Source: Anaerolineae bacterium (GTDB lineage Bacteria; Chloroflexota; Anaerolineae; UBA1429). From it: a stretch of 64,000 nucleotides of DNA. This document shows positions 1,756 through 64,000 of the stretch, in pieces. The stretch's first letter is position 1, and every line of letters starts with the position of its first letter. The stretch spans positions 2,109-66,108 of the forward strand of contig DAOTZU010000169.1 in the NCBI GenBank assembly GCA_034433995.1, written 5' to 3'. The notes under the pieces are model-generated. The model was given only the letters and a program-made list of their open reading frames with translations. It was not told where the DNA came from and made no database searches. A program made the translations under genes and the position numbers.

Positions 1756-2009
1756 GGCACCGTCCTTTCTCCAGGGTTTTGTTTCGCCCTCGGCGAGGCA
1801 AGAGGATGATAAACCGGTTTGGGCATCTGTCAATGCCGGGCGCAAGGGGGCGCGCCAGGTTCCTGGGAGATGCAGTGGACCTGGTTTTGCGCTATAATCG
1901 GGATGCCGCTGCCATCAGCCTGATTTGTCAAAACAGCCGGTCTGCATATATTCTCCAAGAGAATATTCTCGAAATTCGGTTTCCGTTCACGCATGTCAAA
2001 GGGGGAACG

Positions 2010-4301
2010 ATGGACACCACGCGCCTGGTTTTGTTGGGATTGTTGCGGGGTGGCGCCCGCTATGGGTATCAGCTCGGCAAAATGCTCCAAGAGGAGCGCT
2101 ACCGCGATTGGGCCACCGTGCCCACGGCTTCCCTCTACCGCGAGTTGGGGCATCTGGCCGATGAAGGCCTGATCGAGCGGGTGGGCGTGGAGGCCGCCGC
2201 CGGCCGGCCGGCGCGGGTGCTCTATCGTTTGACGGCGGCGGGGGAGGAGGAGTTGAGGCGCCTGCTGCGCGAGGCGTGGAGCGAGATCGCCCCTTGGGGT
2301 TCGCCCCAAGATAGCGCCGTCTTTTTCCTGGAGGCGTTGCCCACCCAGGAGGCAGCGGAGCTTCTGCGGCAACGGTTGCAGCGCCTGGAGGAGGAGGCCG
2401 ACCGTCTGCATCGCCCCGCCCGCGAAGGCCAAACCTCGCCGCTCTTGGAGGCGATCTGGGAGCATGCCCGCCTGCGCTGCCAGAGCGAGATTGAGTGGAC
2501 GCGCGCCCTCTTGGCGCGCCTGGAGGCGGGGGATCTGGCGCCCGAGCCGGCGCTCCCGGCCCAGGCCGCGCAGCCGGCGCCGCGCCCCCCACGGCGCACC
2601 ACGGAGGGGCTGGGCGCCTTTACCTTTGTCCTGCATACCCATCTGCCCTATTGCCGCCTGGCAGGGCGTTGGCCCCACGGCGAAGAATGGATCCATGAGG
2701 CCGCCGCGGAGACATACGTGCCCCTGCTCAACGCCCTGTACGATCTCCGCGAGGAGGGCGTGCCGTACAAACTGACTCTCAGCCTCACCCCCGTCCTCAC
2801 CGAGCAGTTGGCCGATGTGGATATCCAGCAACATTTCATCCTCTATCTGGAGGACGAGATCGAGGCGGCCGAGCTGGATATCCCCCGCTTTGGCGAGGAG
2901 GGACAGCCCCATCTGGAATATTTGGCCACCTTTTATCGCGATTTTTACACCCAGGTGCGCGATGCGTTTCTGCAGCGCTTCTCCGGCGATATCATCGGCG
3001 CCTTTCGTCAGCTCCAGGATGAAGGTTATGTGGAGATCATCACCTCTGCCGCCACCCATGGCTATCTCCCCTTGCTCTCCCGGGATGCTTCCATTTATGG
3101 GCAGTTGCGGGCGGGGGTGGAGAGCTACCGACGGCACTTTGGCCGGGCGCCCAGGGCCATCTGGCTCCCCGAGTGCGCCTATCGCCCGGCCTATCAGGAT
3201 TATGATAACATCGTGCGCCCTGCCCTGGAAGAGTTTCTCGCCCCGCTGGGCCTCACCTGCTTTTTTGTCGAGACCCACGCCATCGAGGGCGGGCGCCCGG
3301 TGGGCAAGGCCGCCGGCGAGGTGGCCATCGGCCCCTATGGGGCCATTCAGCGCCGCTATGTCATCCCCATGGCCGCAGAGCGGGCGCCGGGAGGCACCAC
3401 CTTCTCCGCCTATTATGTGGTGGGCAGCGCCAAAGGCTTGACGGATCCCCCCGTGGCCGTCATCGGGCGCAACAACCGCACCGGCCAACAGGTCTGGTCC
3501 GGCGAATGGGGCTATCCGGGCGATGCGGATTACCGCGAGTTCCACAAAAAAGATCACCAATCCGGCCTGCAATATTGGCGGGTGACGGGTCCGCGGGTGG
3601 ATCTGGGGGATAAAGACTATTACCATCCCGATTGGGCCGCCCACAAGGTGAGCCAACATGCCAACCACTTTGTGGGGTTGGTGGAACAATTGCTGCGGGA
3701 TTATCACGCCCAGAGTGGTCGCTACGGGCTTATCGCCTCCAACTATGATACGGAGCTCTTTGGCCATTGGTGGTTCGAGGGGGTACGCTGGATCCAAGAG
3801 GTCTTGCGTGGCTTGGCGCGCAGCGAGGTGGTGGACCTGGTCACCGCCAGCGAGTACATCAGCCGGCATCCGCCGCAAGAGGTGATGGCCGTGCCGGAGA
3901 GCTCCTGGGGCACCGGCGGCACCCACTGGACCTGGGATAACCCCGATACCCACTGGCTTTGGGAGCCGCTTCATCAGGCCGAGCGCCGCATGGAGGCCCT
4001 GGTGGCAAGTTTCTCCCCCGCGGAGGGCGAGGTTCGCCTGGCCCTCAACCAGGCCGGCCGGGAGCTGTTGCTCCTGCAGGCCAGCGATTGGCCCTTTTTG
4101 ATCACCACCGGCCAGGCCAAACAATACGCGGTGGAGCGTTTTCACGGCCACTTGGAGCGCTTCCATCGCCTGGCCAACTTGTTGGAGCAAGGAGACCTGA
4201 CCGAGGCCGCCCGGCTCGCCGTGGAGCTGTACGAGGTGGACAAAGTCTTCCCAGAGCTGGATTATCGCTGGTTTGCCGCGCGGCAAGGACGGGCAGAATG
4301 A
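2010..4301 (+). CDS. PadR-like winged-HTH domain fused to glycoside hydrolase family 57 (alpha-1,4-glucan branching-enzyme-like)
   Basis: ORF 1779..4301; start chosen at ATG 2010 after GGGGGA RBS. N-terminus has PadR signature (LLGLLRGGARYGYQLGK...SLYRELGHLADEGLIE). From FTFVLHTHLPY onward it is typical GH57. No in-frame start codon exists near the GH57 boundary. Confidence 0.75.
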   Translation: MDTTRLVLLGLLRGGARYGYQLGKMLQEERYRDWATVPTASLYRELGHLADEGLIERVGVEAAAGRPARVLYRLTAAGEEELRRLLREAWSEIAPWGSPQDSAVFFLEALPTQEAAELLRQRLQRLEEEADRLHRPAREGQTSPLLEAIWEHARLRCQSEIEWTRALLARLEAGDLAPEPALPAQAAQPAPRPPRRTTEGLGAFTFVLHTHLPYCRLAGRWPHGEEWIHEAAAETYVPLLNALYDLREEGVPYKLTLSLTPVLTEQLADVDIQQHFILYLEDEIEAAELDIPRFGEEGQPHLEYLATFYRDFYTQVRDAFLQRFSGDIIGAFRQLQDEGYVEIITSAATHGYLPLLSRDASIYGQLRAGVESYRRHFGRAPRAIWLPECAYRPAYQDYDNIVRPALEEFLAPLGLTCFFVETHAIEGGRPVGKAAGEVAIGPYGAIQRRYVIPMAAERAPGGTTFSAYYVVGSAKGLTDPPVAVIGRNNRTGQQVWSGEWGYPGDADYREFHKKDHQSGLQYWRVTGPRVDLGDKDYYHPDWAAHKVSQHANHFVGLVEQLLRDYHAQSGRYGLIASNYDTELFGHWWFEGVRWIQEVLRGLARSEVVDLVTASEYISRHPPQEVMAVPESSWGTGGTHWTWDNPDTHWLWEPLHQAERRMEALVASFSPAEGEVRLALNQAGRELLLLQASDWPFLITTGQAKQYAVERFHGHLERFHRLANLLEQGDLTEAARLAVELYEVDKVFPELDYRWFAARQGRAE

Positions 4302-4449: not shown

Positions 4450-5535
4450 ATGCCCAAGGCGACGGCAGAACGCGCACAACCTCTGTATCAGCGGGTCATC
4501 CAAGATATCTGCGCCCACATCGAAAGCGGCCAGTGGCGCCCTGGCGACAAGTTGCCCAGCGAGCACGCGCTGTGCGAGCGCTACGGCGTCAGCCAGATTA
4601 CGGTGCGCAGGGCGCTGCGCGAGCTGGCCCAGGCGGGACGGGTTTACAGCCACCACGGTTTGGGCTGGTTCGTCAGCGTGGAGAGGGCGGCCCAGGCTGC
4701 CGAGGTGACCCTGCTCCTCTTTGACCTCAATGAGGGCTATGCTCCCGTGGTGCATGCGTTGGCGCAGGCGTTATACCCCCATGGGGTCGTCTTGCGGTTG
4801 GCCTTGGTGGAAGGACCCGGTGAGGACGAAGCGGAGGCGGTGGCCGGGGCCATCGCCCGGGGCGCCGGCGCGCTGGTGCTGGATGTGACCGGCGAGGAGC
4901 GCCGCCTGATCCAACGGTACCATCGCCTGTTGCGCAACGTGGAGATCCCCGTGCTTTTTTTGCGCCACGAGGTGAACGGACTGGATGTGCCCGCAGCCAT
5001 CTTGGATGAGGCCAGCTGCATGGAACAGCTCACCCGCCATATTCTGGCCTTGGGGCATCAACGGGTGGCCTATGCGGGCAACGATCCTGCCTTGGTGGAG
5101 GGACAGCGGCAATACTGGGGTTTTGCCACCACCCTGTGGGATCATGGATTGGAGCTGCCCTTGGATTGGGTCTTTACCGGCGACCTCGCGGCGGAGCGGG
5201 AGGCGGCCCGTTTCCGCCGCGCCTTCCAAGGTGCCGAGCGACCCACGGCCCTCGTCTGCGCCTCCGCGCTCCAGGCGGCGGAGGCCATGCATCTCTTGCG
5301 CGAGCTGGAACTGCACTGCCCGGAGGACGTGGCCATCGTGGCTCTGGGCGATAGCGCTTTCGCTCCCCTTTTGCCCACGCCCCTCACCACCTTTCGCCTG
5401 GCCCTGGCCGAGCTGGGCCAGGCTGCCGCTCAGTTGCTCCTCGAACTGGTGGCCGGCCATCCTGTTCAAAGCGTTCGCCTCACCGGCGAGCTGGTTGTGC
5501 GCCAAAGCTGTGGTGCCCACGCTGCCCGAACCTAG
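4450..5535 (+). CDS. transcriptional regulator: GntR-type HTH fused to LacI/periplasmic-binding-protein-like sugar-binding domain
   Basis: N-terminal GntR HTH (LPSEHALCERYGVSQITVRRALRELA); C-terminal PBP-like domain; RBS GAAGGTGAGAGG. Confidence 0.75.
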   Translation: MPKATAERAQPLYQRVIQDICAHIESGQWRPGDKLPSEHALCERYGVSQITVRRALRELAQAGRVYSHHGLGWFVSVERAAQAAEVTLLLFDLNEGYAPVVHALAQALYPHGVVLRLALVEGPGEDEAEAVAGAIARGAGALVLDVTGEERRLIQRYHRLLRNVEIPVLFLRHEVNGLDVPAAILDEASCMEQLTRHILALGHQRVAYAGNDPALVEGQRQYWGFATTLWDHGLELPLDWVFTGDLAAEREAARFRRAFQGAERPTALVCASALQAAEAMHLLRELELHCPEDVAIVALGDSAFAPLLPTPLTTFRLALAELGQAAAQLLLELVAGHPVQSVRLTGELVVRQSCGAHAART

Positions 5536-9324: not shown

Positions 9325-10698
9325 TTACTCCTGCAAAATCTCTTTGGCCTGGGCGATCTGGGCCAGGACGCTGCGGCGCGCCGTGCCGCCGATGACGTTC
9401 CGCGCCTCCACCGAGGCCTCGAAGCTGAACACGCCATAGAGATCCGGCCCAAAGGCCGGCGAGAGGCGCCGGTACTCTGCGTACTCGAGCTTGCTCAACG
9501 GCACGCCCCGCTCCTCGGCCAAGAGCACCGCTTGGCCCACCAGCCTGTGCGCCTCGCGGAAGGGCAGCCCCCGCTTGACGAGGTAATCGGCCAGGTCGGT
9601 GGCCAAAAGGTCCTCGCGCAGCGCGGCCCGCATGCGCTCGGCGTTCACCTCCAAGGTCTCTACCACGCCGGCGACCACGGGCAGCACCCGGGCCAAGGTG
9701 TCCAAAGTATCAAAAAGGGGTTCCTTATCCTCCTGCAGGTCTTTATCGTAGGTGGAGGGGAGGCCCTTGAGCACCACCAGCAGGCGCGTCAGGTTGCCCA
9801 CCAGCCGGCCCGCCTTGCCGCGCACCAACTCCATGCTATCGGGGTTGCGCTTTTGGGGCATGATGCTGGAGCCGGTGGTGTAGCGCTCCGCCAGGCGCAG
9901 AAAGCCAAACTCGGCGCTGGACCACAGGATCACATCCTCCGCCAGGCGGCTGAGGTGCAGCCCCAAGATGGCCGCCCAGCTCAGGGTCTCCAGGATCATG
10001 TCCCGGTCGCTGACGGCATCCATGCTGTTCTCCGTCACGCCGGCAAAGCCCAGCTCCCGCGCCAACGCCTCGCGATCGAGGCCATAGGCGTTGCCGGCCA
10101 ACGCGCCGGCCCCCAAAGGACAGCGGGCCACCCGTTTGAGGAGATCGGCGAGCCGCTCCTGATCCCGCTGGAGCATCCAGAAATACGCGAGCAACCAATG
10201 GCTGAAGCGCACCGGCTGGGCGGGCTGCAGGTGCGTATAGCCGGGCATGATGACCTCGATCTCGGCCTCGGCCTTGCTCACCAGCGCTTGCTGCGCCTGG
10301 CGCAACAAGCGCCCCAGGGCTGGCAGTTCCTCCAACAGGTAAAGGCGCACATCGGTGGCCACCTGGTCGTTGCGGCTGCGGCCGGTGTGGAGCTTGCCCG
10401 CCACCGGCCCCACCAGCTCGCCCAGGCGTCGCTCCACGGCGGTGTGGATGTCCTCATCGCCGGGGGCCAGGACGAACGTGCCCTGGGCGAACTCGGCGGC
10501 CACCTGTTCCAGGCCGGTGATGAGGGTCTGCGCCTCCTCCACCGTGAGCACCCCCGCCCGGGCCAACGCCCGGGCATAGGCGATGCTGCCCTTGATATCC
10601 ACCTGGGCCAAACGCCGATCGAAACCGATGGAGGCGTTCAGCTCCCACAGGAGCGCATCCGTCGGGCCGGTGTAGCGGCCGCCCCAGAGTGTGCCCAT
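9325..10698 (-). CDS. argH: argininosuccinate lyase
   Basis: ORF 9325..10740 (-); start MGTLWGGRY at 10698; fumarate-lyase family signature. Confidence 0.9.
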   Translation of the reverse strand: MGTLWGGRYTGPTDALLWELNASIGFDRRLAQVDIKGSIAYARALARAGVLTVEEAQTLITGLEQVAAEFAQGTFVLAPGDEDIHTAVERRLGELVGPVAGKLHTGRSRNDQVATDVRLYLLEELPALGRLLRQAQQALVSKAEAEIEVIMPGYTHLQPAQPVRFSHWLLAYFWMLQRDQERLADLLKRVARCPLGAGALAGNAYGLDREALARELGFAGVTENSMDAVSDRDMILETLSWAAILGLHLSRLAEDVILWSSAEFGFLRLAERYTTGSSIMPQKRNPDSMELVRGKAGRLVGNLTRLLVVLKGLPSTYDKDLQEDKEPLFDTLDTLARVLPVVAGVVETLEVNAERMRAALREDLLATDLADYLVKRGLPFREAHRLVGQAVLLAEERGVPLSKLEYAEYRRLSPAFGPDLYGVFSFEASVEARNVIGGTARRSVLAQIAQAKEILQE

Positions 10699-10702
10699 GG
10701 CG

Positions 10703-11968
10703 CTAATCCCGCTTGAACTCGGTGTAATCCGGGCCTTCATGGCCCGTCTTCCCTTTGCCTTCCAGGTCCAGCAGGGCGCGCACCTTCATGGAGAGGCCAT
10801 ACAGATTGATGAATCCCTCGGCGTCGCTTTGGTCGTACACATCGTCGGCGCCAAACGTGGCATAGTCCTCGCGATAGAGGCTGTAGGGCGACTTGCGCCC
10901 CACCACCCAGCAATTTCCCTTGTATAGCTTGACCCGCACAGTGCCCGTCACCCGTTGCTGGGTGGAACGGACAAAGGCGTCCAGGGCCTCGCGCAAGGGG
11001 GTAAACCAGCGGCCATTGTACACCAATTCGGCGTATTTCTGGGCGACGAGGTCTTTGTAATGCATCGTCTCGCCATCCAGCGTGAGGCTCTCCAAGCCCA
11101 TATGGGCCGTGCGCAGGATGGTGCCGCCGGGGGTCTCGTACACGCCCCGGGACTTCATCCCCACCAGGCGGTTCTCCACCATGTCCACCCGGCCCACGCC
11201 GTGGGCGCCGCCCAGGCGGTTCAAGGCCGTGACAAGCTCCACCGGCCCCATGCTGACGCCGTTCAAGCGCACCGGCACGCCCTGGTGAAAGTCAATCTCC
11301 ACATAGGCCGGCTCGTCGGGGGCCTTTTCGGGGGCGACGGTGAGGACAAACATCTCCTCGTCCGGCTCGCGCCAGGGGTCTTCCAGGCCGCCGCCTTCAT
11401 GGCTGATGTGCCAGATGTTGCGGTCGCGGCTATAGATGGAGCGGCGCGTCTGGCTCACGGGCACGTTGTGGGCCGCGGCATATTCCAGGGCATCCTCGCG
11501 GGAGCGGATGTGCCACTCGCGCCAAGGGGCGATCACCCGCAGCTTGGGGTTCAGGGCCTTGAAGGTCAACTCAAAGCGCACCTGGTCGTTCCCTTTGCCG
11601 GTGCAGCCGTGGGCCACGGCATCGGCCCCTTCCAGCTCGGCGATCTCCACCATTCTTTTGGCGATGAGGGGCCGGGCGAAGGAGGTGCCTAGAAGGTACA
11701 GCCGCTCATAGACGGCGCCGGCCATGAGGGTGGGAAAGACATATTCGGTGAGGAACTCGCCCCTGAGGTCCTCGATATAGATTTTGCTGGCGCCGCTGGC
11801 CAGGGCCTTGGCCTCCAGGCCGTTCAGTTCCTCCTCCTGGCCCAGGTCGGCGGTGAAGCAGACCACCTCGCAGCCATAATTCTCGCGCAGCCAGGGCACG
11901 ATCACCGAGGTATCCAGGCCGCCCGAATAGGCCAAGACGCACTTGTTCACTTTACCCTTGGGTTGCAT
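10703..11968 (-). CDS. argG: argininosuccinate synthase
   Basis: [22 protein letters not shown]-terminus; start at 11968. Confidence 0.9.
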
Positions 11969-12464
11969 GGCGCTCCTCCTGTTGTTGATCCAGATCAATG
12001 ATCAAAGCCACTTCATCGCAATTGGGGAATTTGGGACAATCGATGCAATCGCCCCAGATCTTGTGGGGCAACATCTCCCGCGAGACAAGGTGAAACCCCA
12101 GCCATTCAAAGAACGTTTGATGGTAGGTCAGGGCAAAGACCCGGGGTAGCCCCAAACTGCGGGCCTCCCGCAGCAATGCCTGCACCAGGCGCCGTCCCAC
12201 GCCTTTTTTGCGCCAACCCTCGGCCACGGCCAGGGAGCGGATCTCGGCGATGTCCTCCCAGACCACGTGGAGCGCGCCACAGCCGATGAGCTCGCCCTCG
12301 GCGATGGCCACGGTGAAATCGCGGATGTCTTGGTAGAGGCGATGTTGCGAACGAGGCAACATCTGCCCCTGGGCGGCATAGCCGTTGATGAGCCGCGCCA
12401 TGGCCGGCACATCTTTGACGGTGGCCTTGCGGATGAGGATGGATTGGTTGTCGCTTTCCGTCAC
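11952..12464 (-). CDS. GNAT-family N-acetyltransferase (short N-acetylglutamate-synthase-like; in arg operon)
   Basis: GNAT motifs ([10 protein letters not shown]); sits between argD and argG; 17-nt overlap with argG start. Confidence 0.7.
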
Positions 12465-12476
12465 AGAAACCTCCTG

Positions 12477-13667
12477 TCAGAGCCGGCTAAAGGCCCGGTC
12501 GAGGATCTCCACCGCCCGATCCAGCTCGGCCTGGCCCACGATAAGGGGCGGCAGCAGGCGCAACACCCGCGGCCCCGCCTTGCAGGTGATCAGGCCCTCC
12601 TCGTAGCCGGCCTGGATCAGCGGTGTCACGTCCCTATCGGTCTCTAATCCCCAGATCAGCCCCCGTCCGCGCACCTGGCGGATTTGGCCGTGGCGCTGTT
12701 GCAGCTCCAGCAACCTTCCCTCCAGATAAGACCCCGCCCGGCGCACATGCTCCAGAAATTGGGGGGCCGAGATCTTGTTGACCACCACCTGGGCCACCGC
12801 GCAGACCAGGGGGTTGGCAGCGAAGGTGCTGCCGTGGTCGCCCACGGCGACGGTCTCGGCCACCTCTTCTTTGAGGAGGGTGGCGCCCATGGGCAGGCCG
12901 CCGGCCAGGGGCTTGGCCAAGGTCATGAGATCGGGCTGGACGCCATAGAACTCGTGGGCCCACAGCGTGCCCGTGCGTCCCAGACCGCATTGCACTTCGT
13001 CAAAGATGAGCAGAACTTGGCGTTCCGTGCAAAGCTGGCGCAGGCCGCGGAGGAATTCCGTCGTAGCCAGGTTCACGCCGCCCTCTCCCTGCACCGGCTC
13101 CACGATGCAGGCGCAGGTCTTTTCGTCCAGCAGGGCCTCGGCCGAGGCCAAATCGTTAAAAGTGGCGAACTTGGCCCCCGGCACCAGGGGACGGAAGGGA
13201 TCTTGGTAATGCGGGCGCGGCGTCACCGCCAGGGCGCCCATGGTGCGCCCGTGGAACCCCTCGCTGAAGGCCAGGATCTCGTTCTTCTCCGGGCCGAAGC
13301 GGACCTTGGCCCATTTGCGGGCGAATTTGAGCGCCGCCTCTGCTGCCTCGGTGCCTGAATTGCAAAAGAATACCTTATCGGCGAAAGAGCGCTCCACCAA
13401 CATCTGGGCGAGCTGGGCCTGGGGCGCCGTGAGGTATAAATTGGAGACGTGGATGAGCCGCTCGGCCTGCTCGTGCAGCGCCCGGCGCACGTCAGGATCG
13501 CCGTATCCCAGGGCATTGACGGCGATGCCGCTGACGAAATCCAAGTAGGCGCGCCCCTCGGTATCGTAAAGGTAGGCCCCCTCTCCCCGTTCCAAGACAA
13601 AGGGGGCACGGGCATACGTGGCCAGGACATAGCGCTCATCTAACGCGCGGATCTCGGCTGCGTTCAT
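12477..13667 (-). CDS. argD: acetylornithine aminotransferase
   Basis: Class-III PLP aminotransferase; MNAAEIRALDERYVLATYARAPFVLERGEGAYLYD. Confidence 0.9.
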   Translation of the reverse strand: MNAAEIRALDERYVLATYARAPFVLERGEGAYLYDTEGRAYLDFVSGIAVNALGYGDPDVRRALHEQAERLIHVSNLYLTAPQAQLAQMLVERSFADKVFFCNSGTEAAEAALKFARKWAKVRFGPEKNEILAFSEGFHGRTMGALAVTPRPHYQDPFRPLVPGAKFATFNDLASAEALLDEKTCACIVEPVQGEGGVNLATTEFLRGLRQLCTERQVLLIFDEVQCGLGRTGTLWAHEFYGVQPDLMTLAKPLAGGLPMGATLLKEEVAETVAVGDHGSTFAANPLVCAVAQVVVNKISAPQFLEHVRRAGSYLEGRLLELQQRHGQIRQVRGRGLIWGLETDRDVTPLIQAGYEEGLITCKAGPRVLRLLPPLIVGQAELDRAVEILDRAFSRL

Positions 13668-13683
13668 CTCTCCTCCTCAATGG

Positions 13684-14439
13684 TCAAGCCAGCACGCGGG
13701 TGCCCGAGCCCCGGGCGAACCCCGCCAGATCGGTGATGCGCACCGCGCCCACGCCCGCGGCGATGGCCTCCAGGGCCGAGCGCACTTTGGGGATCATCCC
13801 GCCGCTGATTTCCCCTGTGGCGATGAGATGCTCCGCCTCCTCCGCCCGCAGCGCATCCATCAGGGCGCCACCCCGCAGCACGCCGGGGACGTTGGTCAAA
13901 AAGACCGCCTCGGCCACCTTCAAGGCGCCGGCGATGGCCAAGGCGGCGTGATCGGCGTTGACGTTCAGCGCCCGGCCGTCCTCGCCCAGGGAGATGGGCG
14001 AGATGACCGGCGTCAAGCCCAGGGAGAGGAGCTGCTGAAGGCAGGCGGCGTCCACGGCGGTGATCTCGCCCACGCGCCCCAGGTCGCCTTGGGGATGGAC
14101 CAGGGTTTTGGCCCGCAAGAGGCCGGCGTCCACCCCGCTCAGGCCCATGGCCCGCACCCCTTGGGCCACCAGCCGGGCCACCAGGCGTTTGTTCACCGCC
14201 CCCGAAAGGACCATCTCTGCCACCCACAGGGAGGCCTCGTCGGTCACCCGCAGGCCCTCCACAAAGCGGGGCTGCAACCCGAGACGTTCTTGGAGCGCGG
14301 CGATCTCTGGCCCGCCGCCATGCACCACCACCAGGGGGCGCTGCCTTGCCAGGCGGGCCAGCACCTCCACTAAGGTGGCCAGCTCAGGCCCTTCCTGCAA
14401 TTCCGCCCCACCCACTTTGACCAGGATCAAATCGCCCAT
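13684..14439 (-). CDS. argB: acetylglutamate kinase
   Basis: ORF 13684..14496 (-); start MGDLILVKVGG at 14439 with GAGGGGGA RBS. Confidence 0.9.
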   Translation of the reverse strand: MGDLILVKVGGAELQEGPELATLVEVLARLARQRPLVVVHGGGPEIAALQERLGLQPRFVEGLRVTDEASLWVAEMVLSGAVNKRLVARLVAQGVRAMGLSGVDAGLLRAKTLVHPQGDLGRVGEITAVDAACLQQLLSLGLTPVISPISLGEDGRALNVNADHAALAIAGALKVAEAVFLTNVPGVLRGGALMDALRAEEAEHLIATGEISGGMIPKVRSALEAIAAGVGAVRITDLAGFARGSGTRVLA

Positions 14440-14533
14440 TTTCCCCCTCTCCAGGGGTATGTTTGCCACTTCTCGTGGCCTTGTGCCCGTGGCCAACGCC
14501 CACGAGGGGCTAGGGTACCGGTTGGTAGCCCTG

Positions 14534-15550
14534 CTAGACCAGCAACCCCAACGTCTCTTCTAGGCCAAACATCACGTTCATATTCTGCACGGCCTGGCCG
14601 GAGGCCCCTTTGACCAAATTATCAATGGCCGAGACCAGGATAAATTCCCCCGGCGCGCCTGCCGAGCTGAGGGATAGCGCGCAACGGTTGCTGTGCACCA
14701 CGTGGGCCAACGTGGCCAGGTTGCCCAATTCCAGGATCTGAATAAAGGGCTCGCCGGCATAGGCTTGCTGCCAGAGGGCTAGAAGATCCTCTGCCCCCAG
14801 CTCCGGCCGCGCCTGGATATAGATGGTGGAGAGAATCCCCCGCGAGACGGGCAACAGATGCGGCGCAAAGACCAGACGCAAGGGCTTTTTCCCATAGAGG
14901 GCCAGCTCCTGCTCCATCTCGGGGACGTGACGGTGCACATGCCCCACGTTATAGGCCGAGTAATTCTCGTACACGCTGACAAAATGGGTCTTGGGCGTGG
15001 GTTTGGCCCCCGCCCCCGAAACGCCGGAGGCGGCATCCACGATGATGCGCTCTCCCGTCAGGGCGCCGGCGCGCAACAAAGGGTATAGGGGCAGGAGCAC
15101 CGACGTGGGGTAACACCCCGGATTGGCCACCAACCGCGCCCCGGCCACCTGGGTGCGATAGACCTCCGTGAGGCCGTAAACGGCCTCGCCCAAGAGTTCG
15201 GGCGCCGGATGGGTGTGTTCGTACCAGGCGGCGTAGACGGCCGGATCGCGCAAGCGGAAATCGGCCGAAAGATCCACGCATTTGGCCCCCGCCGCCAGCA
15301 CCTTCTGGGCCAAGGGGGCCGAGGCGCCGTGGGGCGTGCACAAAAAGACGACATCGGCCTGCTCCAAGGGGGCCTCCTCCGGCGAGATCAGGCGCAGATC
15401 AAAGGGCCCCGGATAGACCTGGTTCAGGCGCTGGCCCGCGTAACTTTCCGAGGCGGCAAAGACCACCTCCGCTTGGGGGTGTCGCGCCAGGATCTGGAGC
15501 AGCTCGTATCCCGCATACCCTGTGACGCCATAGATGCCGACGCGAATCAT
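14534..15550 (-). CDS. argC: N-acetyl-gamma-glutamyl-phosphate reductase
   Basis: MIRVGIYGVTGYAGYELLQILARHP; RBS AGGAGG. Confidence 0.9.
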   Translation of the reverse strand: MIRVGIYGVTGYAGYELLQILARHPQAEVVFAASESYAGQRLNQVYPGPFDLRLISPEEAPLEQADVVFLCTPHGASAPLAQKVLAAGAKCVDLSADFRLRDPAVYAAWYEHTHPAPELLGEAVYGLTEVYRTQVAGARLVANPGCYPTSVLLPLYPLLRAGALTGERIIVDAASGVSGAGAKPTPKTHFVSVYENYSAYNVGHVHRHVPEMEQELALYGKKPLRLVFAPHLLPVSRGILSTIYIQARPELGAEDLLALWQQAYAGEPFIQILELGNLATLAHVVHSNRCALSLSSAGAPGEFILVSAIDNLVKGASGQAVQNMNVMFGLEETLGLLV

Positions 15551-15577
15551 CGGCCTCCTTTCCTTTCCGTGAAGCGC

Positions 15578-15612
15578 AGAGCAACAAAAAAACCAGCCCC
15601 CGTCTGGAGAGC
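15578..15612 (-). terminator. hairpin followed by T7 run inside the argC 5' leader (attenuator-like)
   Basis: Minus-strand CCAGCTCTCCAGACGGGGGCTGG-TTTTTTTG; only long U-tract seen in this GC-rich window. Confidence 0.3.
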
Positions 15613-15670
15613 TGGTGTGTGCATGCGCAGAATCGTGACCCAGGCGATACCATCCAGACCGGCGGTCCGG

Positions 15671-15718
15671 CTACAGCCCAGGCTGCCTCCTCAATGGATG
15701 GACCATCGTCGGGTTCAT
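15671..15718 (-). other. 15-codon upstream ORF in arg leader (MNPTMVHPLRRQPGL*) with tandem rare AGG-AGG Arg codons
   Basis: Minus-strand ATG preceded by AGAGG; lies between promoter and U-tract hairpin. Confidence 0.2.
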
Positions 15719-15747
15719 CGCCTCACCTCTGTTCAGCGTTGCGCCAA

Positions 15748-15776
15748 GTATAACGCAAAGGCCGGCCCTTGTCAAT
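15748..15776 (-). promoter_or_regulatory. sigma70-like promoter TTGACA-N17-TATACT for arg operon, with TTGCG-N10-CGCAA inverted repeat overlapping the -10
   Basis: Minus-strand hexamers exact for -35, 5/6 for -10, 17-nt spacer; about 190-nt leader to argC ATG. Confidence 0.4.
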
Positions 15777-15779
15777 TTA

Positions 15780-15836
15780 AAGACCCGACAGGTCTTTCAA
15801 GACCTGTCGGGTCTTGCCAGACCTGTCAGGTCTCCA
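15780..15836. promoter_or_regulatory. array of three 15-bp palindromes AGACC-N5-GGTCT in argC/epimerase divergent region
   Basis: AGACCCGACAGGTCT / AGACCTGTCGGGTCT / AGACCTGTCAGGTCT separated by 4 bp. Confidence 0.4.
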
Positions 15837-15957
15837 TACGCGGCGAGACCCCTGGCTCCCAAATGGCCGGCCAAAACCCTTTCCGGCCTCAGTGGACGGG
15901 GAAGAAGGACCATGCTATCATACTGGCCACATGACCAAGCAACGGGGAGGAAAGGCG

Positions 15958-16968
15958 ATGCGGGTTCTTTTCATCGGCGGGACGGGCAACATCAGCTCGG
16001 CCTGCGTGGAGTTGGCCCTGGCGCGGGGCTATCAGGTGACGTTGCTCAACCGCGGCACCCGGGAGACGCCCTGGGGCGACCGGGTGACCACCATCCTGGG
16101 CGACCGCAACGATGGCCCCTTCCTGGCCCAGGTGGCCGAGGAGGGGCGCTACGATGTGGTGGCCAACTTTGTCGGTTTTACGCCGCAACAGATTGAGCTG
16201 GATATCGCCGCCTTTGCCGGGCGGGTGGGCCAGTACATCTTTATCAGCTCGGCCAGCGTCTATCAAAAGCCACCCAACCATTACCTCATCACCGAGTCCA
16301 CGCCTCTCCATAACCCCTATTGGGAGTATTCCCGGCAAAAGATCGCCTGCGAGGAGCGCCTGCTGCGGGCCTATCGCGAGGAGGGGTTCCCCATCACCAT
16401 CGTGCGCCCCTCGTACACCTTTGGCCCTACCTGGATCCCCAGCGGCGTGGGCGGCCACGGCTATACCATCGTGGGGCGGATGCGCCAAGGCAAGCCCATC
16501 ATCTCCCACGGCGATGGCCAATCGCTCTGGGTGATGACCTTCCACACCGATTTTGCCCTGGGGTTTGTGGGGCTATTCGGCAAAGCCCAGGCCATCGGCG
16601 AGGCGGTGCACATCACCAGCGACGAGGTGCTCACCTGGGACCAGATCTACCACACCATCGCCCGCGCCGCTGGCTGTCGGGCAGAGATCGTGCATATCCC
16701 CTCGGATTTCATCGCCGCCGTCTATCCGGAATGGGGCCCTGGCCTCTTGGGCGATAAGGCCCATAGCGTGGTGTTCGATAACCAAAAGATCAAGCGCTTG
16801 GTGCCCGAGTTTCGCGCCACGGTGAGCTTTGCCGAGGGGATCGCCCGCTCCCTGGCCTGGCATGACGCCGACCCCGCCCGCCAGGTGGTGGATGCCAAAA
16901 CCGACGCCATGATGGACCGCCTCATCGCCCTCTATCGCCGCGCCTGGGAGGGGTTGGGACGCGGATGA
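15958..16968 (+). CDS. NAD-dependent epimerase/dehydratase family protein
   Basis: MRVLFIGGTGNISSACVELALARGY Rossmann N-terminus; start 15958 after GGGGAGGAAAGG. Confidence 0.8.
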   Translation: MRVLFIGGTGNISSACVELALARGYQVTLLNRGTRETPWGDRVTTILGDRNDGPFLAQVAEEGRYDVVANFVGFTPQQIELDIAAFAGRVGQYIFISSASVYQKPPNHYLITESTPLHNPYWEYSRQKIACEERLLRAYREEGFPITIVRPSYTFGPTWIPSGVGGHGYTIVGRMRQGKPIISHGDGQSLWVMTFHTDFALGFVGLFGKAQAIGEAVHITSDEVLTWDQIYHTIARAAGCRAEIVHIPSDFIAAVYPEWGPGLLGDKAHSVVFDNQKIKRLVPEFRATVSFAEGIARSLAWHDADPARQVVDAKTDAMMDRLIALYRRAWEGLGRG

Positions 16969-48891: not shown

Positions 48892-48989
48892 CGGGATCCT
48901 CCCATGGGAGACCTTTTGGGCTCACCTGCCGCATAGCGTCGTGGTCTTGTGCCCGTTTTTTTGCTGGTCGCCGCCCGCAAAGGGCTAGG

Positions 48990-60927: not shown

Positions 60928-63141
60928 ATGCGGAAAAAACAGTTCCGGCAGGTCAAGCCCAGCGGAGAACAGGAAAATCTCCAAGAAACGTTGACGGCCA
61001 TGCGTGGCGACACCTTCCGGGTGATCCTGCTCCTCAGCTTGGTGGCCACGGTGGGCTGGTATCTCTGGGAGAGGATACGGGTGCCGGCCAATGACGCCGT
61101 GGATGGCGGGCTCTTTATCGTCCCGGTGTTGCTCTGGCTGTGGATCGTCTATCAATTGTTGGATGAGCAGCCGCGGGCGGCGCAGCTCGTCTATCTCCTG
61201 GGCGGGTTGGTCTTGTTGAGCGGGCACATCTGGTTATTCCAATCGTCGCGGGCGCTGTATCTTTATGGCGTGTTGGCCTTGATCGCCGTGGTCATTTGGG
61301 AGCCTTGGTCCGGCTTGGCCATGGCGGGCCTGGGGATCTTGACGGCCTATCTCTTGCTTTCCTTCGGCGGGACGCGCCTGGGGTCTCCTGCCCAAGTGAC
61401 TTTAATGGCGCTGAACACCTTGGCGGTGGTGGTGGTGGGTTGGACCTTGGCCCAGAACTTTGCCTTGGCCGTCAGTTGGTCCCTCACCAGCTATGCCAAG
61501 GCCAGGGATAGCTTGGCGGCGGTGCAGGCCCGGCGGGCGGAGGTGATCCACCTCAACCAGGAGCTGAGCCGCGCCCGCGAGCGCCTGGAGCGGGCCAACG
61601 CCGCCCTGGTGCGCGCGTGGCGCGCCGCCGAGGAGGCCGAGCGCCGCCAAAAACAGATGACGGCTTACATCAGCCACGAGCTGCGCACGCCCCTTAACCT
61701 CATCGTCGGCTTTAGCGAGATGTTGGTCACCTCACCCGAGACCTACGGCCTGGAGCAGCTCCCGCCCAAGGTGCGCCGCGACCTCAACGCCATTTACCGC
61801 AGCGCCGAGCAGGTGGCGGCGCTGGTGGATGACGTCTTGGACATGGCCAGCGTGGATGCTGGCCATCTCGCCCTCATGCGCGAGCCTTCGGACCTTTGGC
61901 AGGTGGTGCTGGAGGCCATCTCCATGGTGCGAGATTATGTGGAGACCAAGAACCTGGCTCTGCGCGTGGAGCGCCAGGGCGAGATCCCCACGCTCCTCTT
62001 GGACCGGCTGCGCATCCGCCAGGTGTTGCTTAACCTGCTCATCAACGCGGCGCGCTTTACCCTGGAGGGGGCCATCATAGTGCGAGTGATGCGCGAGCCG
62101 GACCAAGTGCGGGTGCAGGTGCACGACACGGGCAAAGGGATCGCCCCGGAGGATCTGGACAAGATCTTTCAAGAGTTTCACGCCTCATCGGAGGCCCCTT
62201 CGTGGTGGGGCAAGGGCACCGGCCTGGGGCTGCCCCTCAGCCGGCGCTTGGTGCGCCTCCACGGCGGCGAGATGGGCGTGGAAAGCACGCTGGGCCGAGG
62301 CTCCACCTTCTGGTTCACCCTGCCCCTGGAGATGGCCACTGACCAGGGCCAGGTGACCATGGTCTACACCCAGCCCAGGGTGGCCCGCTCCGAGCCTCAA
62401 CCCAGCTTGGTGATCTATCAGGAGGACGAGGTGGCGGTGCACCGCCTGCGGCGCTGGCTGGAAGGTTACCACCTGGTGAGCGCACCCTCATGGGAGGAGG
62501 CCCGACAACGGGCGGAGGAGCTGCGCGCCGTGGCCCTCCTGGCCGACGCCCGAGCGCCCCTGCCTGAAGAGCCCGCTGCCTTGCCCATCATCCAATGTCC
62601 TTTGCCCAGCACCCGCCAATGGGCCCAGGCCCTGGGCGTGGAGGCCTATTTGGCCAAGCCGGTGCGCAATGCCTACTTGCTGCAAGTTTTGCGCGAGGTG
62701 ATCCCGCAAGGGGAAAAGGTGTTGGTGGTGGATGACGATGAGCGCTTTGTGCAGTTGGTGAGCCGGGTGTTGGAGACGGCCTCGCCGCCCTATCGCGTGG
62801 CGGTGGCCTATAACGGCGAGGAGGCCCTACAAAAGATGGCCACGGAGCGGCCCGACGTGGTGTTGCTCGACCTGGCTTTGCCCCAGGTGGATGGCTACCA
62901 GGTGTTGAAGATCAAAGCAGCAGATCCCCAGATGGCCCCCATCCCGGTGATCGTCATCTCGGCGCCGCCGGTGGAGGAGGAGAGCGCCCCCTTGGGCGAG
63001 ACCTTTATCGTGCGGCAAAAGGAGGGGCTCTATCTGGATCAGATCAGCCATCTGGTGCAGAGCGTGCTGACGGTGCTTTCCCCTGGGGATGGGAGCGCTA
63101 GCCCCAGCGATGCAGGGCCTCGCGAAGCATCTCCTGGGTGA
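60928..63141 (+). CDS. membrane-bound hybrid histidine kinase with two C-terminal receiver-like domains
   Basis: About 6 TM helices; H-box ISHELRTPLN; HATPase; C-terminal REC (VLVVDDDERFV...VLLDLALPQVDG). Confidence 0.75.
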   Translation: MRKKQFRQVKPSGEQENLQETLTAMRGDTFRVILLLSLVATVGWYLWERIRVPANDAVDGGLFIVPVLLWLWIVYQLLDEQPRAAQLVYLLGGLVLLSGHIWLFQSSRALYLYGVLALIAVVIWEPWSGLAMAGLGILTAYLLLSFGGTRLGSPAQVTLMALNTLAVVVVGWTLAQNFALAVSWSLTSYAKARDSLAAVQARRAEVIHLNQELSRARERLERANAALVRAWRAAEEAERRQKQMTAYISHELRTPLNLIVGFSEMLVTSPETYGLEQLPPKVRRDLNAIYRSAEQVAALVDDVLDMASVDAGHLALMREPSDLWQVVLEAISMVRDYVETKNLALRVERQGEIPTLLLDRLRIRQVLLNLLINAARFTLEGAIIVRVMREPDQVRVQVHDTGKGIAPEDLDKIFQEFHASSEAPSWWGKGTGLGLPLSRRLVRLHGGEMGVESTLGRGSTFWFTLPLEMATDQGQVTMVYTQPRVARSEPQPSLVIYQEDEVAVHRLRRWLEGYHLVSAPSWEEARQRAEELRAVALLADARAPLPEEPAALPIIQCPLPSTRQWAQALGVEAYLAKPVRNAYLLQVLREVIPQGEKVLVVDDDERFVQLVSRVLETASPPYRVAVAYNGEEALQKMATERPDVVLLDLALPQVDGYQVLKIKAADPQMAPIPVIVISAPPVEEESAPLGETFIVRQKEGLYLDQISHLVQSVLTVLSPGDGSASPSDAGPREASPG

Positions 63142-64000
63142 CGGGCTTGCGCAGATATCCCGCCGCCCCCAGGGAGAGGGCCAATTGGGGTTGATGCAGA
63201 ATGGAACAGATGACCACGGGGATGGAGGCCGTGGCCGGCGAGCGCTTGAGCTGGGTCAGGAGCTGCCAGCCATCCTGGCCGGGCAGGAGCACGTCCAGCA
63301 GGATGAGGGAAGGCCGCCGTTCCTGGCATAGGACCAGGGCCTGTTCCACCGTGGCTGCGTGCAAGAGGAGCCAATCCTCTCCCTCGAGATAGCGGGCAAA
63401 GAGCTCCGCTAACTCCTGGTTGTTATCCACCAAGAGGACGAGCCGTTGGCGCGCCAGAACGGGAAAGGAGAGGCAAATCTGTCGGGCGCCCTCTTGGTCG
63501 AGGATGATGGCGCCCCCGCTCATCTCCACAAAGGGGCGCACGCGTTCGGGATCCAAGGGCGGCGCTGTGGGATTGAGGGGCCCCTCGCAGGAGATGCGGA
63601 CGAGGGCTTGCTCCCTTTGCGAAACAACCTGTACCCGCACCGCCCCTTCCATCAGCGCGCCGGCCAGCTCAGAGAGGGGCAAAAGCACGCTCTGGCGCAG
63701 GATGCTGGGGATGGCCCGCACCCAAAGCGGCGTGGTGGATGGCGCCAGCTCCAAGCGTAGACCGCTCTCCTGGAGGCTGGGCCCCAGCAGGGTGGCCAGA
63801 TCGCGGAGGACCGCGTTGAGCTCAAGGGCCTCCGGCGCCTCCTGGCGGGCAAGGGCCAGGAGCTCATCCCGGGTGAGGGTGTCGGCATCGGTGGGGGGGC
63901 AAGGCTGCTCTGCCTCGGTCAGTGCTTGGTCCAGCCCCCAGGCGTGCCAGAGGATGCAAGCCAGGGCCTCCACGGCGCGGGAATGGTCACGATAGTATTG
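63098..64000 (-). CDS. signal-transduction protein with C-terminal receiver domain (partial; N-terminus beyond window)
   Basis: C-terminal REC block LVLLVDNNQELAEL...ILLDVLLPGQDG; frame open to window end; 44-nt convergent overlap with 60928..63141. Confidence 0.55.
   Translation of the reverse strand, partial: QYYRDHSRAVEALACILWHAWGLDQALTEAEQPCPPTDADTLTRDELLALARQEAPEALELNAVLRDLATLLGPSLQESGLRLELAPSTTPLWVRAIPSILRQSVLLPLSELAGALMEGAVRVQVVSQREQALVRISCEGPLNPTAPPLDPERVRPFVEMSGGAIILDQEGARQICLSFPVLARQRLVLLVDNNQELAELFARYLEGEDWLLLHAATVEQALVLCQERRPSLILLDVLLPGQDGWQLLTQLKRSPATASIPVVICSILHQPQLALSLGAAGYLRKPVTQEMLREALHRWG

Follow-up and report, generated by a model that had tools for sequence, protein, structure and literature searches.

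The attenuators of the enterobacterial trp, his and leu operons share one logic, in which RNA segments pair as 1:2, 2:3 or 3:4; E. coli trpL has only two sensor codons, and E. coli leuL employs rare CUA codons. Classical attenuation is usually presented as largely proteobacterial, with His, Leu, Thr, Trp, Phe and Ile/Val as its amino acids, and arginine biosynthesis is the standard example of control by ArgR/AhrC repression. In fungi, the arginine attenuator peptide of the arg-2 / CPA1 upstream open reading frame (uORF) works as a eukaryotic, translational device, in which a conserved nascent peptide and free arginine stall the ribosome at the uORF stop codon at high arginine. Here we analyse a leader that precedes argC, the first gene of an arginine operon, on the minus strand of a 64,000-nucleotide (nt) stretch of contig DAOTZU010000169.1 from an Anaerolineae bacterium, a member of the Chloroflexota; this whole stretch is hereafter called the window. 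We propose that the leader is likely to be a ribosome-mediated leader-peptide transcription attenuator, which would sense charged tRNA-Arg and control read-through into argC-argB-argD-GNAT-argG-argH. The transcription start, the translation of the uORF, actual termination and the arginine response are inferred here from the sequence and not observed.

Attenuators have been published for His, Leu, Thr, Trp, Ile/Val and Phe (PMC3766115). According to a survey of 2010, leader-peptide systems had not been shown outside Proteobacteria and Actinobacteria (PMC2965389), and a comparative study of Actinobacteria found no RNA element upstream of arginine operons, while citing arginine T-boxes elsewhere (PMC1262725). 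No arginine leader-peptide attenuator of an arg operon, nor any leader-peptide attenuator in Chloroflexota, was found in the searchable full-text literature, a body of text outside which subscription journals lie, so that an earlier description is possible. The leader resembles the enterobacterial attenuators (trpL, hisL, leuL, thrL, pheL, ilvL/ivbL) in its short open reading frame (ORF), where codons for its own pathway's amino acid are clustered, in its four RNA segments that pair as 1:2, 2:3 or 3:4, and in its intrinsic terminator just before the first structural gene; the two sensor codons of the window copy recall trpL, and their rarity recalls leuL (CUA). It differs from them in its amino acid, arginine, in its phylum, Chloroflexota, in the apparently leaderless state of about half of the family, and in the stop codon of the window copy, which stands before region 1. 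Neither its sequence nor the covariance models link it to the Trp, His, Leu, Thr or Leu/Phe leaders of Rfam. As in the case of the fungal arginine attenuator peptide, a uORF stands ahead of an arginine-biosynthesis gene and arginine-specific control would pass through the ribosome; unlike that peptide, the one in the window is unconserved except for Arg, and stalling is predicted at low arginine. ArgR/AhrC serves the same pathway and signal but is a DNA-binding repressor, and neither an ARG box nor an ArgR gene was found in the window; Arg-specific T-boxes also share pathway and signal but read uncharged tRNA directly, and no T-box match was obtained in the window.

Two further groups of sensor ORFs are comparable. 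In Salmonella, two consecutive Arg codons in orf34 of the speF leader suffice for arginine sensing, and they act, like those proposed here, with ribosome pausing and alternative mRNA structures (PMC6386406). The orf34 system differs in that it controls ornithine decarboxylase and not arginine synthesis, its outputs being Rho-dependent termination, sequestration of the ribosome-binding site (RBS) and RNase G decay, with no intrinsic terminator (PMC6386406); it has no sequence relation to the leader in the window. Mycobacteria have leaderless polycysteine short ORFs (bioRxiv 10.1101/834739), and Rhodobacterales have a cysS uORF motif (PMC8632094); these are likewise amino-acid-specific sensor ORFs beyond the enterobacteria, but both read cysteine and not arginine. 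The mycobacterial elements are leaderless, as is predicted for 11–12 of 21 Chloroflexota leaders, and they are translational, working by RBS sequestration and not by an intrinsic terminator (bioRxiv 10.1101/834739).

The leader and the operon that it precedes comprise the following elements.

15770–15775, minus strand: −35 hexamer TTGACA; together with the −10 it matches at 11 of 12 positions.
15747–15752, minus strand: −10 hexamer TATACT, separated from the −35 by a spacer of 17 nt.
15721–15729, minus strand: Shine-Dalgarno-like GAGGTGAGG of the leader ORF, read from the sequence, its first GAGG 7 nt from the ATG.
15671–15718, minus strand: leader ORF MNPTMVHPLRRQPGL, 15 codons plus TAG (ATG at 15718, TAG at 15673–15671), read from the sequence, with homologous Arg-rich ORFs in 23 other loci.
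15695–15701, minus strand: CCATCCA, a window-specific partner and perfect 7-bp complement of TGGATGG (15656–15650), paired in the predicted free fold and not kept in relatives.
15686–15691, minus strand: sensor codons AGG AGG, tandem minor Arg codons, assigned from codon usage and sub-clade conservation.
15664–15670, minus strand: region 1, CCGGACC, 5' arm of the hairpin P1, abutting the TAG; P1 has −10.6 kcal/mol and z = −2.5.
15649–15660, minus strand: region 2, GGTCTGGATGGT, 3' arm of P1 and 5' strand of the antiterminator, assigned from folding and duplex tests.
15639–15645, minus strand: conserved GCCTGGG, with a T/G step exactly 12 nt past P1, a block kept in clade A.
15608–15602 and 15616–15613, minus strand: region 3 (TCCAGAC) and, at the second position, ACCA, both inside the 5' half of the terminator and pairing with region 2 in the antiterminator.
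15592–15616, minus strand: intrinsic terminator stem-loop ACCAGCTCTCC-AGAC-GGGGGCTGGT, 10 pairs of which 6 are G-C, loop of 5.
15586–15592, minus strand: run of seven T (T7), the U-tract of the terminator, read from the sequence.
15554–15560, minus strand: argC Shine-Dalgarno AAGGAGG, read from the sequence.
9325–15550, minus strand: the regulated operon, argC, argB, argD, a short GNAT (ArgA-like), argG and argH, identified by NCBIfam equivalog matches above the curated cut-offs.

In the proposed mechanism, transcription would begin at TTGACA/TATACT, with a start near 15740 judging from the hexamers, and the 15-codon ORF would be translated as RNA polymerase advances. When arginine is ample, the ribosome would clear AGG AGG, terminate at the TAG and depart; region 2 (GGTCTGGATGG) would be held by CCGGACC in P1 and, in this copy, also by CCATCCA, and the terminator (15616–15592 and the U run) would fold and halt transcription 34 nt before argC. 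When arginyl-tRNA is scarce, the ribosome would stall at the two minor AGG codons, the upstream partners would be masked or unfolded, and region 2 would pair with the 5' half of the terminator (ACCA...TCCAGAC); no terminator would then form and the operon would be transcribed. Four of the five computationally testable features of an attenuator are present, namely a leader ORF, an Arg-codon cluster, an intrinsic terminator and mutually exclusive 1:2 and 2:3 helices. For the fifth, the geometry of the stalled ribosome, modelling of the window copy gives mixed results. The leader matches the class of leader-peptide attenuators functionally and belongs to no Rfam leader family. Rfam 15 gave no match at the gathering score over the whole window and, up to E = 10, no amino-acid leader, T-box or riboswitch within 15000–16500.

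The proposition is substantiated above all by comparison with other Chloroflexota. The argC loci compared were drawn from metagenomes and from a set with one genome per species, with the ArgC of the window as query; the nearest ArgC is 69% identical. The 23 relatives retained, with ArgC 50–69% identical, are metagenome-assembled genomes labelled Anaerolineales, Anaerolinea, Thermoflexus and Roseiflexaceae together with unbinned metagenomic contigs; L004, labelled Promineifilaceae, was left out for want of sufficient upstream sequence. Family counts below refer to 24 leaders, the 23 relatives and the window, and these sequences are phylogenetically related. With the exception of L062, every Chloroflexota-type locus with enough upstream sequence has the same layout of a promoter, a short ORF with an Arg run, the small hairpin P1 and a terminator with a T run. 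The short ORF holds 3–8 Arg codons in all 23 relatives (for example LRRSRR, RRLRRR, RSRRQR, RRRVRR, RRYRRR, RRVRRRR and RRPRPPR), and the terminators of all 24 leaders have −15 to −31 kcal/mol. An earlier note on this DNA, made from the sequence alone, had named the absence of the leader and its uORF from relatives as grounds for giving up the idea of an attenuator; an Arg-rich uORF is found in 23 of 23 homologous leaders. A sequence profile built from the 23 relatives without the window finds a single significant match in the window, at 15684–15584 (E = 4.5e-16), and a profile that includes the window has no match in 136 argC loci from outside the Chloroflexota.

All 160 argC loci were also scanned for an Arg-rich small ORF plus a terminator. 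The hits outside the Chloroflexota were rejected as Arg leaders, being mostly false positives from the C-terminus of rpsI (ribosomal protein S9, ...ARRRKQFSKR) upstream of argC. This gene directly precedes argC in Proteobacteria, Nitrospirota and Thermodesulfobacteriota (L012, L033, L036, L039, L047, L057, L066 and many others), and to a naive scan its Arg-rich C-terminus with its own terminator looks like an Arg leader followed by a terminator. The deltaproteobacterial loci L021, L038, L050 and L058 also hold a few short ORFs that contain Arg. A weak second match of the leader profile in the window, at 3476–3565 on the plus strand (E = 0.004 to 0.04), contains CAGGTCTGGTCCGG; it lies within a long ORF (1779–4301) and was discarded as a spurious chance match.

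The Arg codons constitute the most constant part of the peptides, which are otherwise unconserved. Arg makes up 18.4% of leader-peptide residues across the 24 leaders, with 106 codons against 65 +/- 7 in shuffled ORFs, and none of 1000 shuffles reaches 106. The enrichment is specific to the reading frame, where the highest number of Arg codons within any 7 codons averages 3.75, as compared with 1.7 and 1.1 in the two other frames. The runs are written with AGG in some clades and with CGN in others, and the two main clades do not share the frame of the CCGGAC/CCAGAC motif (CCG GAC vs C CAG AC). Because the clades differ both in Arg codons and in the frame of the motif, Arg is selected as a codon run, and the motif and the hairpins are selected as RNA. 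The leaders favour minor codons: CGT or AGG accounts for 54 of the 106 leader Arg codons (51%), against 56 of 410 (14%) in the adjacent argC genes (p = 7e-15). In the sub-clade of eight to which the window belongs, AGG provides 20 of the 30 Arg codons in the leaders but 6 of the 123 in argC (p = 8e-13); AGG AGG is kept in seven of these leaders, and the eighth, L002, has two separated AGG. Seven genes of the window use AGG for 14 of their 219 Arg codons (6.4%). It is therefore a minor codon there, in agreement with the earlier note, which had described a 15-codon uORF with two consecutive rare AGG.

A promoter of the form TTGACA, 16 or 17 nt, TAnnnT is recognisable in 21 of the 24 leaders, the window included, and in 11–12 of these 21 the start codon stands 6–11 nt past the −10 (L003, L005, L007, L008, L009, L028, L083, L085, L086, L087, L089 and L091). 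Since the start codon is only 6–11 nt beyond the −10, about half of the leader ORFs are probably translated from leaderless mRNAs. The leader in the window differs from these relatives with a close start in its 28-nt 5' untranslated region (UTR), which carries the Shine-Dalgarno-like GAGGTGAGG.

At the RNA level, P1 in the window is a 7-bp hairpin of CCGGACC (15670–15664), GCC and GGTCTGG (15660–15654), the 3' arm of which is complementary to CCAGAC in the 5' half of the terminator. The two helices would compete for GGTCTGG, and the complementarity is maintained across the family. RNAalifold predicts P1 and the terminator independently in both main clades. The duplex of region 2 with the terminator 5' half, which always uses the 3' arm of P1, is stronger than with dinucleotide-shuffled upstream sequence in 24 of 24 leaders; the mean z is −2.4, 19 of 24 leaders lie below −1.64, and the combined p is 5e-16, a value to be read in the knowledge that the sequences are related. 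In the alignment of 24 sequences, 88% of cells are paired for P1 and 85% for the antiterminator, against at most 48% and at most 44%, respectively, in controls slid by 1–3 columns. The alternative terminator/antiterminator pairing, for which the earlier note had recommended folding of the leader, accordingly exists with family-wide statistical support. The 2:3 pairing is maintained by differing sequences in divergent lineages, region 2 being given before region 3 in each line.

Clade A: GTCTGGA with TCCAGAC.
Clade B: GGTCTGGTG with CGCCAGACC.
L028 and L084: GTC(C/T)GGA with TCCGGGC.
L005 and L088: GTGTGTC(T)GG with CC(T)GACACAC.
L007: CGGGATC with GATCCCG.

In clade B, both arms of P1 are near-copies of both arms of the terminator.

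Among the terminator-like sites in 10 kb, the terminator of the window ranks first; its fold has −15.3 kcal/mol (z = −3.9 relative to shuffles). A strong promoter precedes it, and the first gene of a complete arg operon follows; on the other side, an epimerase gene (NAD-dependent, plus strand, from about 15958) is divergently transcribed. As the flanking gene is divergent, no protein gene on the minus strand could own the terminator, which therefore ends no upstream protein gene. The hairpin followed by a U-tract in the leader was correctly described in the earlier note, as a 10-bp stem with T7 is present. That this U-tract is the only long one in the window does not hold: the T7 at 15586–15592 is the only run of at least seven on the minus strand, but two more T7 runs lie on the plus strand, at 4955–4961 and 48956–48962. 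For the window, P1 plus terminator has −25.9 kcal/mol, the antiterminator −19.0 and the terminator alone −15.3, a modelled ordering of energies that suits a switch.

Folding with an imposed ribosome is in line with the proposed mechanism for most of the family. When the ribosome is stalled at the Arg run of a transcript that stops short of the terminator's 3' arm, at least 9 nt of the terminator 5' half are paired upstream in 22 of 24 leaders. When there is no ribosome, or when it has reached the stop codon, the terminator forms in 24 of 24. In the window, free RNA or a ribosome at the stop codon leaves all 10 of the 10 terminator pairs, and masking of everything up to 10 nt past the Arg codons abolishes them (0 of 10).

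The conserved GCCTGGG constitutes a further element. The block is ungapped in 9 of 10 clade A leaders (alignment A3, columns 55–61), and an equivalent, TGYCTGAGT, is found in 8 of 9 clade B leaders (alignment A4, columns 47–55), where its TGA is the leader stop codon. No pairing partner of GCCTGGG was found. By analogy it may be a candidate RNA polymerase pause site, because its spacing fits a hairpin-stabilised pause like those of the trp and his leaders.

Taken together, the conserved Arg-rich uORF, the profile match and the alternative pairing support the ribosome-mediated attenuation that the earlier note had suggested for this operon. We hold it very probable, from the comparative evidence, that the family is a ribosome-mediated Arg attenuator. 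That the window copy is still arginine-responsive is moderately likely, and several observations weigh against it. Taken alone, the uORF and the folding of the window are within chance, and the significance arises from comparison with the relatives. The whole-leader fold of the window is no better than shuffles (z = 0.01), and its own 2:3 duplex is individually non-significant (z = −1.27, p = 0.12). Even for the family, much of the helix support rests on conservation in related sequences and not on independent compensatory changes. For the version in the window no fine-scale covariation is available, because the best other ArgC is 69% identical and an exact-protein look-up returned only identical copies of the leader. 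The window copy is the most reduced sensor of the family: it has only 2 Arg codons, the fewest of the 24 leaders (its closest relatives have LRRSRR or LRRSLR), and shares its early TAG only with L082. A gap of 15 nt separates its last Arg codon and region 1, where relatives have −4 to 12 nt; because this gap exceeds the normal footprint, a ribosome stalled on AGG AGG would not cover CCGGACC. When a 30-nt footprint and a free 5' UTR are imposed, equilibrium folding retains the terminator at every ribosome position. CCATCCA, just 5' of AGG AGG, would be covered by a ribosome that stalls there and may stand in for region 1; according to the fold, its masking would free those bases of region 2 to which ACCA...TCCAG of the terminator is complementary. 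This compensation would be specific to the window and so beyond comparative check. These features could be expected of a decayed member of an otherwise functional Arg attenuator family, one that serves as a constitutive partial terminator or yields a leader RNA of about 150 nt, perhaps trans-acting, with no response to arginine: the small number of Arg codons, the early stop, the 15-nt distance, the terminator never released under the 30-nt footprint and the 2:3 duplex score all point in this direction. Decay is nevertheless unlikely in our view, since all RNA elements are intact and recognised by the profile of the relatives, AGG AGG is retained exactly as in the closest relatives, the order of energies is right for a switch, and both trpL and orf34 (PMC6386406) function with no more than two sensor codons. 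The sequence is, moreover, base-for-base identical in four independent assemblies (L161–L163 included), and the early TAG and the two-codon design are therefore not assembly errors. The short ORF looks like a recent truncation from GAG to TAG, because the frame beyond the TAG continues the peptide end of relatives: the TAG aligns with GAG of L001, the frame past it (15653–15673) reads CCG GAC CGC CGG TCT GGA (P D R R S G), and relatives whose ORF runs through P1 share that end (...EPDEQSG*, ...PVHRSG*).

Two other explanations set the Arg codons aside. GGTCTGG, CCAGAC and GCCTGGG could be read by a trans-acting factor, either an RNA-binding protein like PyrR or TRAP or, as a riboswitch, a small molecule, the Arg codons being secondary. 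GTCTGG, CCAGAC and TGYCTGRG are indeed conserved beyond the need of free covariation, GCCTGGG has no identified pairing partner, and a weak PyrR-site match (Rfam, E = 0.53) lies nearby. That match was rejected, as an unrelated palindrome gives rise to it and its position is upstream of the promoter; Rfam gave no family above threshold, and the structured part is a 7-bp hairpin, too simple for a ligand pocket. The slow change of the motifs is itself accounted for by four-way complementarity (region 1 ~ region 3, region 2 ~ region 4), and the Arg run is the sole feature that survives in every lineage, even with wholly different hairpins (L005, L007, L010, L088). We regard this reading as very improbable. 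The alternative in which an ArgR/AhrC-type repressor acts at the promoter, the uORF and hairpin being incidental, is more improbable still. The promoter that the earlier note had placed ahead of argC is present, its −10 lying 197 nt upstream of the argC ATG (15550), and 10 kb contain two promoter-like sites, this one included, against 1.8 in shuffles. The inverted repeat over the −10, to which the earlier note had ascribed the role of an operator, is there too (TTGCG at 15758–15754, N10, CGCAA at 15743–15739), and repression by ArgR is the textbook control of arg operons. The operator role was nevertheless rejected, because the arms are only 5 bp, an equal or longer inverted repeat arises in 49% of shuffles of the same promoter stretch, and the repeat is not kept in orthologous promoters, 13 of 21 of which have no inverted repeat of at least 5 bp. 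A search of the whole window for ARG-box-like palindromes (TGAAT-N4-ATTCA type, up to 3 mismatches) gave 0 matches, with 2.9 expected by chance. No ArgR gene was detected in the 64 kb by tblastn with E. coli ArgR and B. subtilis AhrC as queries, the rest of the genome being outside the scope of this search. The ArgR homologue and box that the earlier note had proposed to look for were thus both not found in the window; the only tblastn match (26 bits) falls inside the ORF at 63098–63973, in which Pfam recognises nothing but a response-regulator receiver domain in another part of the protein. Such a repressor would also leave the conservation of the uORF, P1 and the terminator unexplained. A repressor could act elsewhere, for instance at the three palindromes of 15781–15833, in addition to attenuation.

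We lean, if slightly, towards the broader proposition that a phylum-wide family of arginine-sensing leader-peptide attenuators, which we call argL, controls arginine biosynthesis in Chloroflexota (Anaerolineae, Thermoflexales and Chloroflexia), with minor-codon sensors that are frequently leaderless and a motif 12 nt past P1 that may be a coupling pause site. If true, a conserved Arg-codon attenuator would add a new amino-acid specificity to attenuation and would carry the mechanism into a deep-branching, mostly uncultured phylum, and it would place arginine operons, for which textbooks give repressor control alone, among the pathways that ribosome stalling governs. Attenuation in Chloroflexota would imply transcription-translation coupling there. 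The family would likewise provide a simple marker of arg regulation for the annotation of metagenome-assembled genomes. It also offers a natural series of sensors for tuning studies, with 2 to 8 Arg codons, AGG or CGU, leaderless or Shine-Dalgarno-led translation, and a stop codon before, inside or after the 1:2 hairpin. The class of mechanism is already known, and the advance is incremental and not conceptual.

Beyond the leader, a 15-bp palindrome, AGACCYGWCRGGTCT, occurs three times, at 15781–15795, 15800–15814 and 15819–15833 (both strands), with an exact period of 19 bp. The array lies between the two divergent promoters, its nearest copy 5 bp upstream of the arg −35; no further copies are present in the 64 kb, where about 0.001 exact matches are expected. 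Neighbouring copies make a perfect hairpin, which is the source of the weak PyrR-site match. The array could be an operator array for a regulator, or a repeat like the repetitive extragenic palindromic (REP) elements or miniature inverted-repeat transposable elements (MITE). Among the 160 loci the palindrome is found elsewhere only in L009, a metagenome-assembled genome of the Anaerolineae, at 2879–2893 and 2961–2975 with one mismatch each; together these two copies form an inverted repeat of 16 nt, with a distance of 82 nt, in the interval from the leader terminator to argC. The presence of the palindrome twice beside arg leaders is suggestive and too sparse for interpretation.

Within the operon, no argJ, argF or carAB was detected with NCBIfam. 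The stand-alone GNAT of 170 amino acids (11952–12464, minus strand) lies between argD and argG. It matches a domain of the N-acetylglutamate-synthase-like type (NF005840, and NF008964 in its C-terminal part) which certain bacteria carry as a fusion to ArgH, and its ORF shares 47 nt with the listed argG ORF. About 94 nt (14440–14533, minus strand) between argC and argB are non-coding if argB starts where gene callers put it (251-amino-acid product, identical contigs), and, unlike this gap, the remaining junctions of the operon are tight or overlapping.

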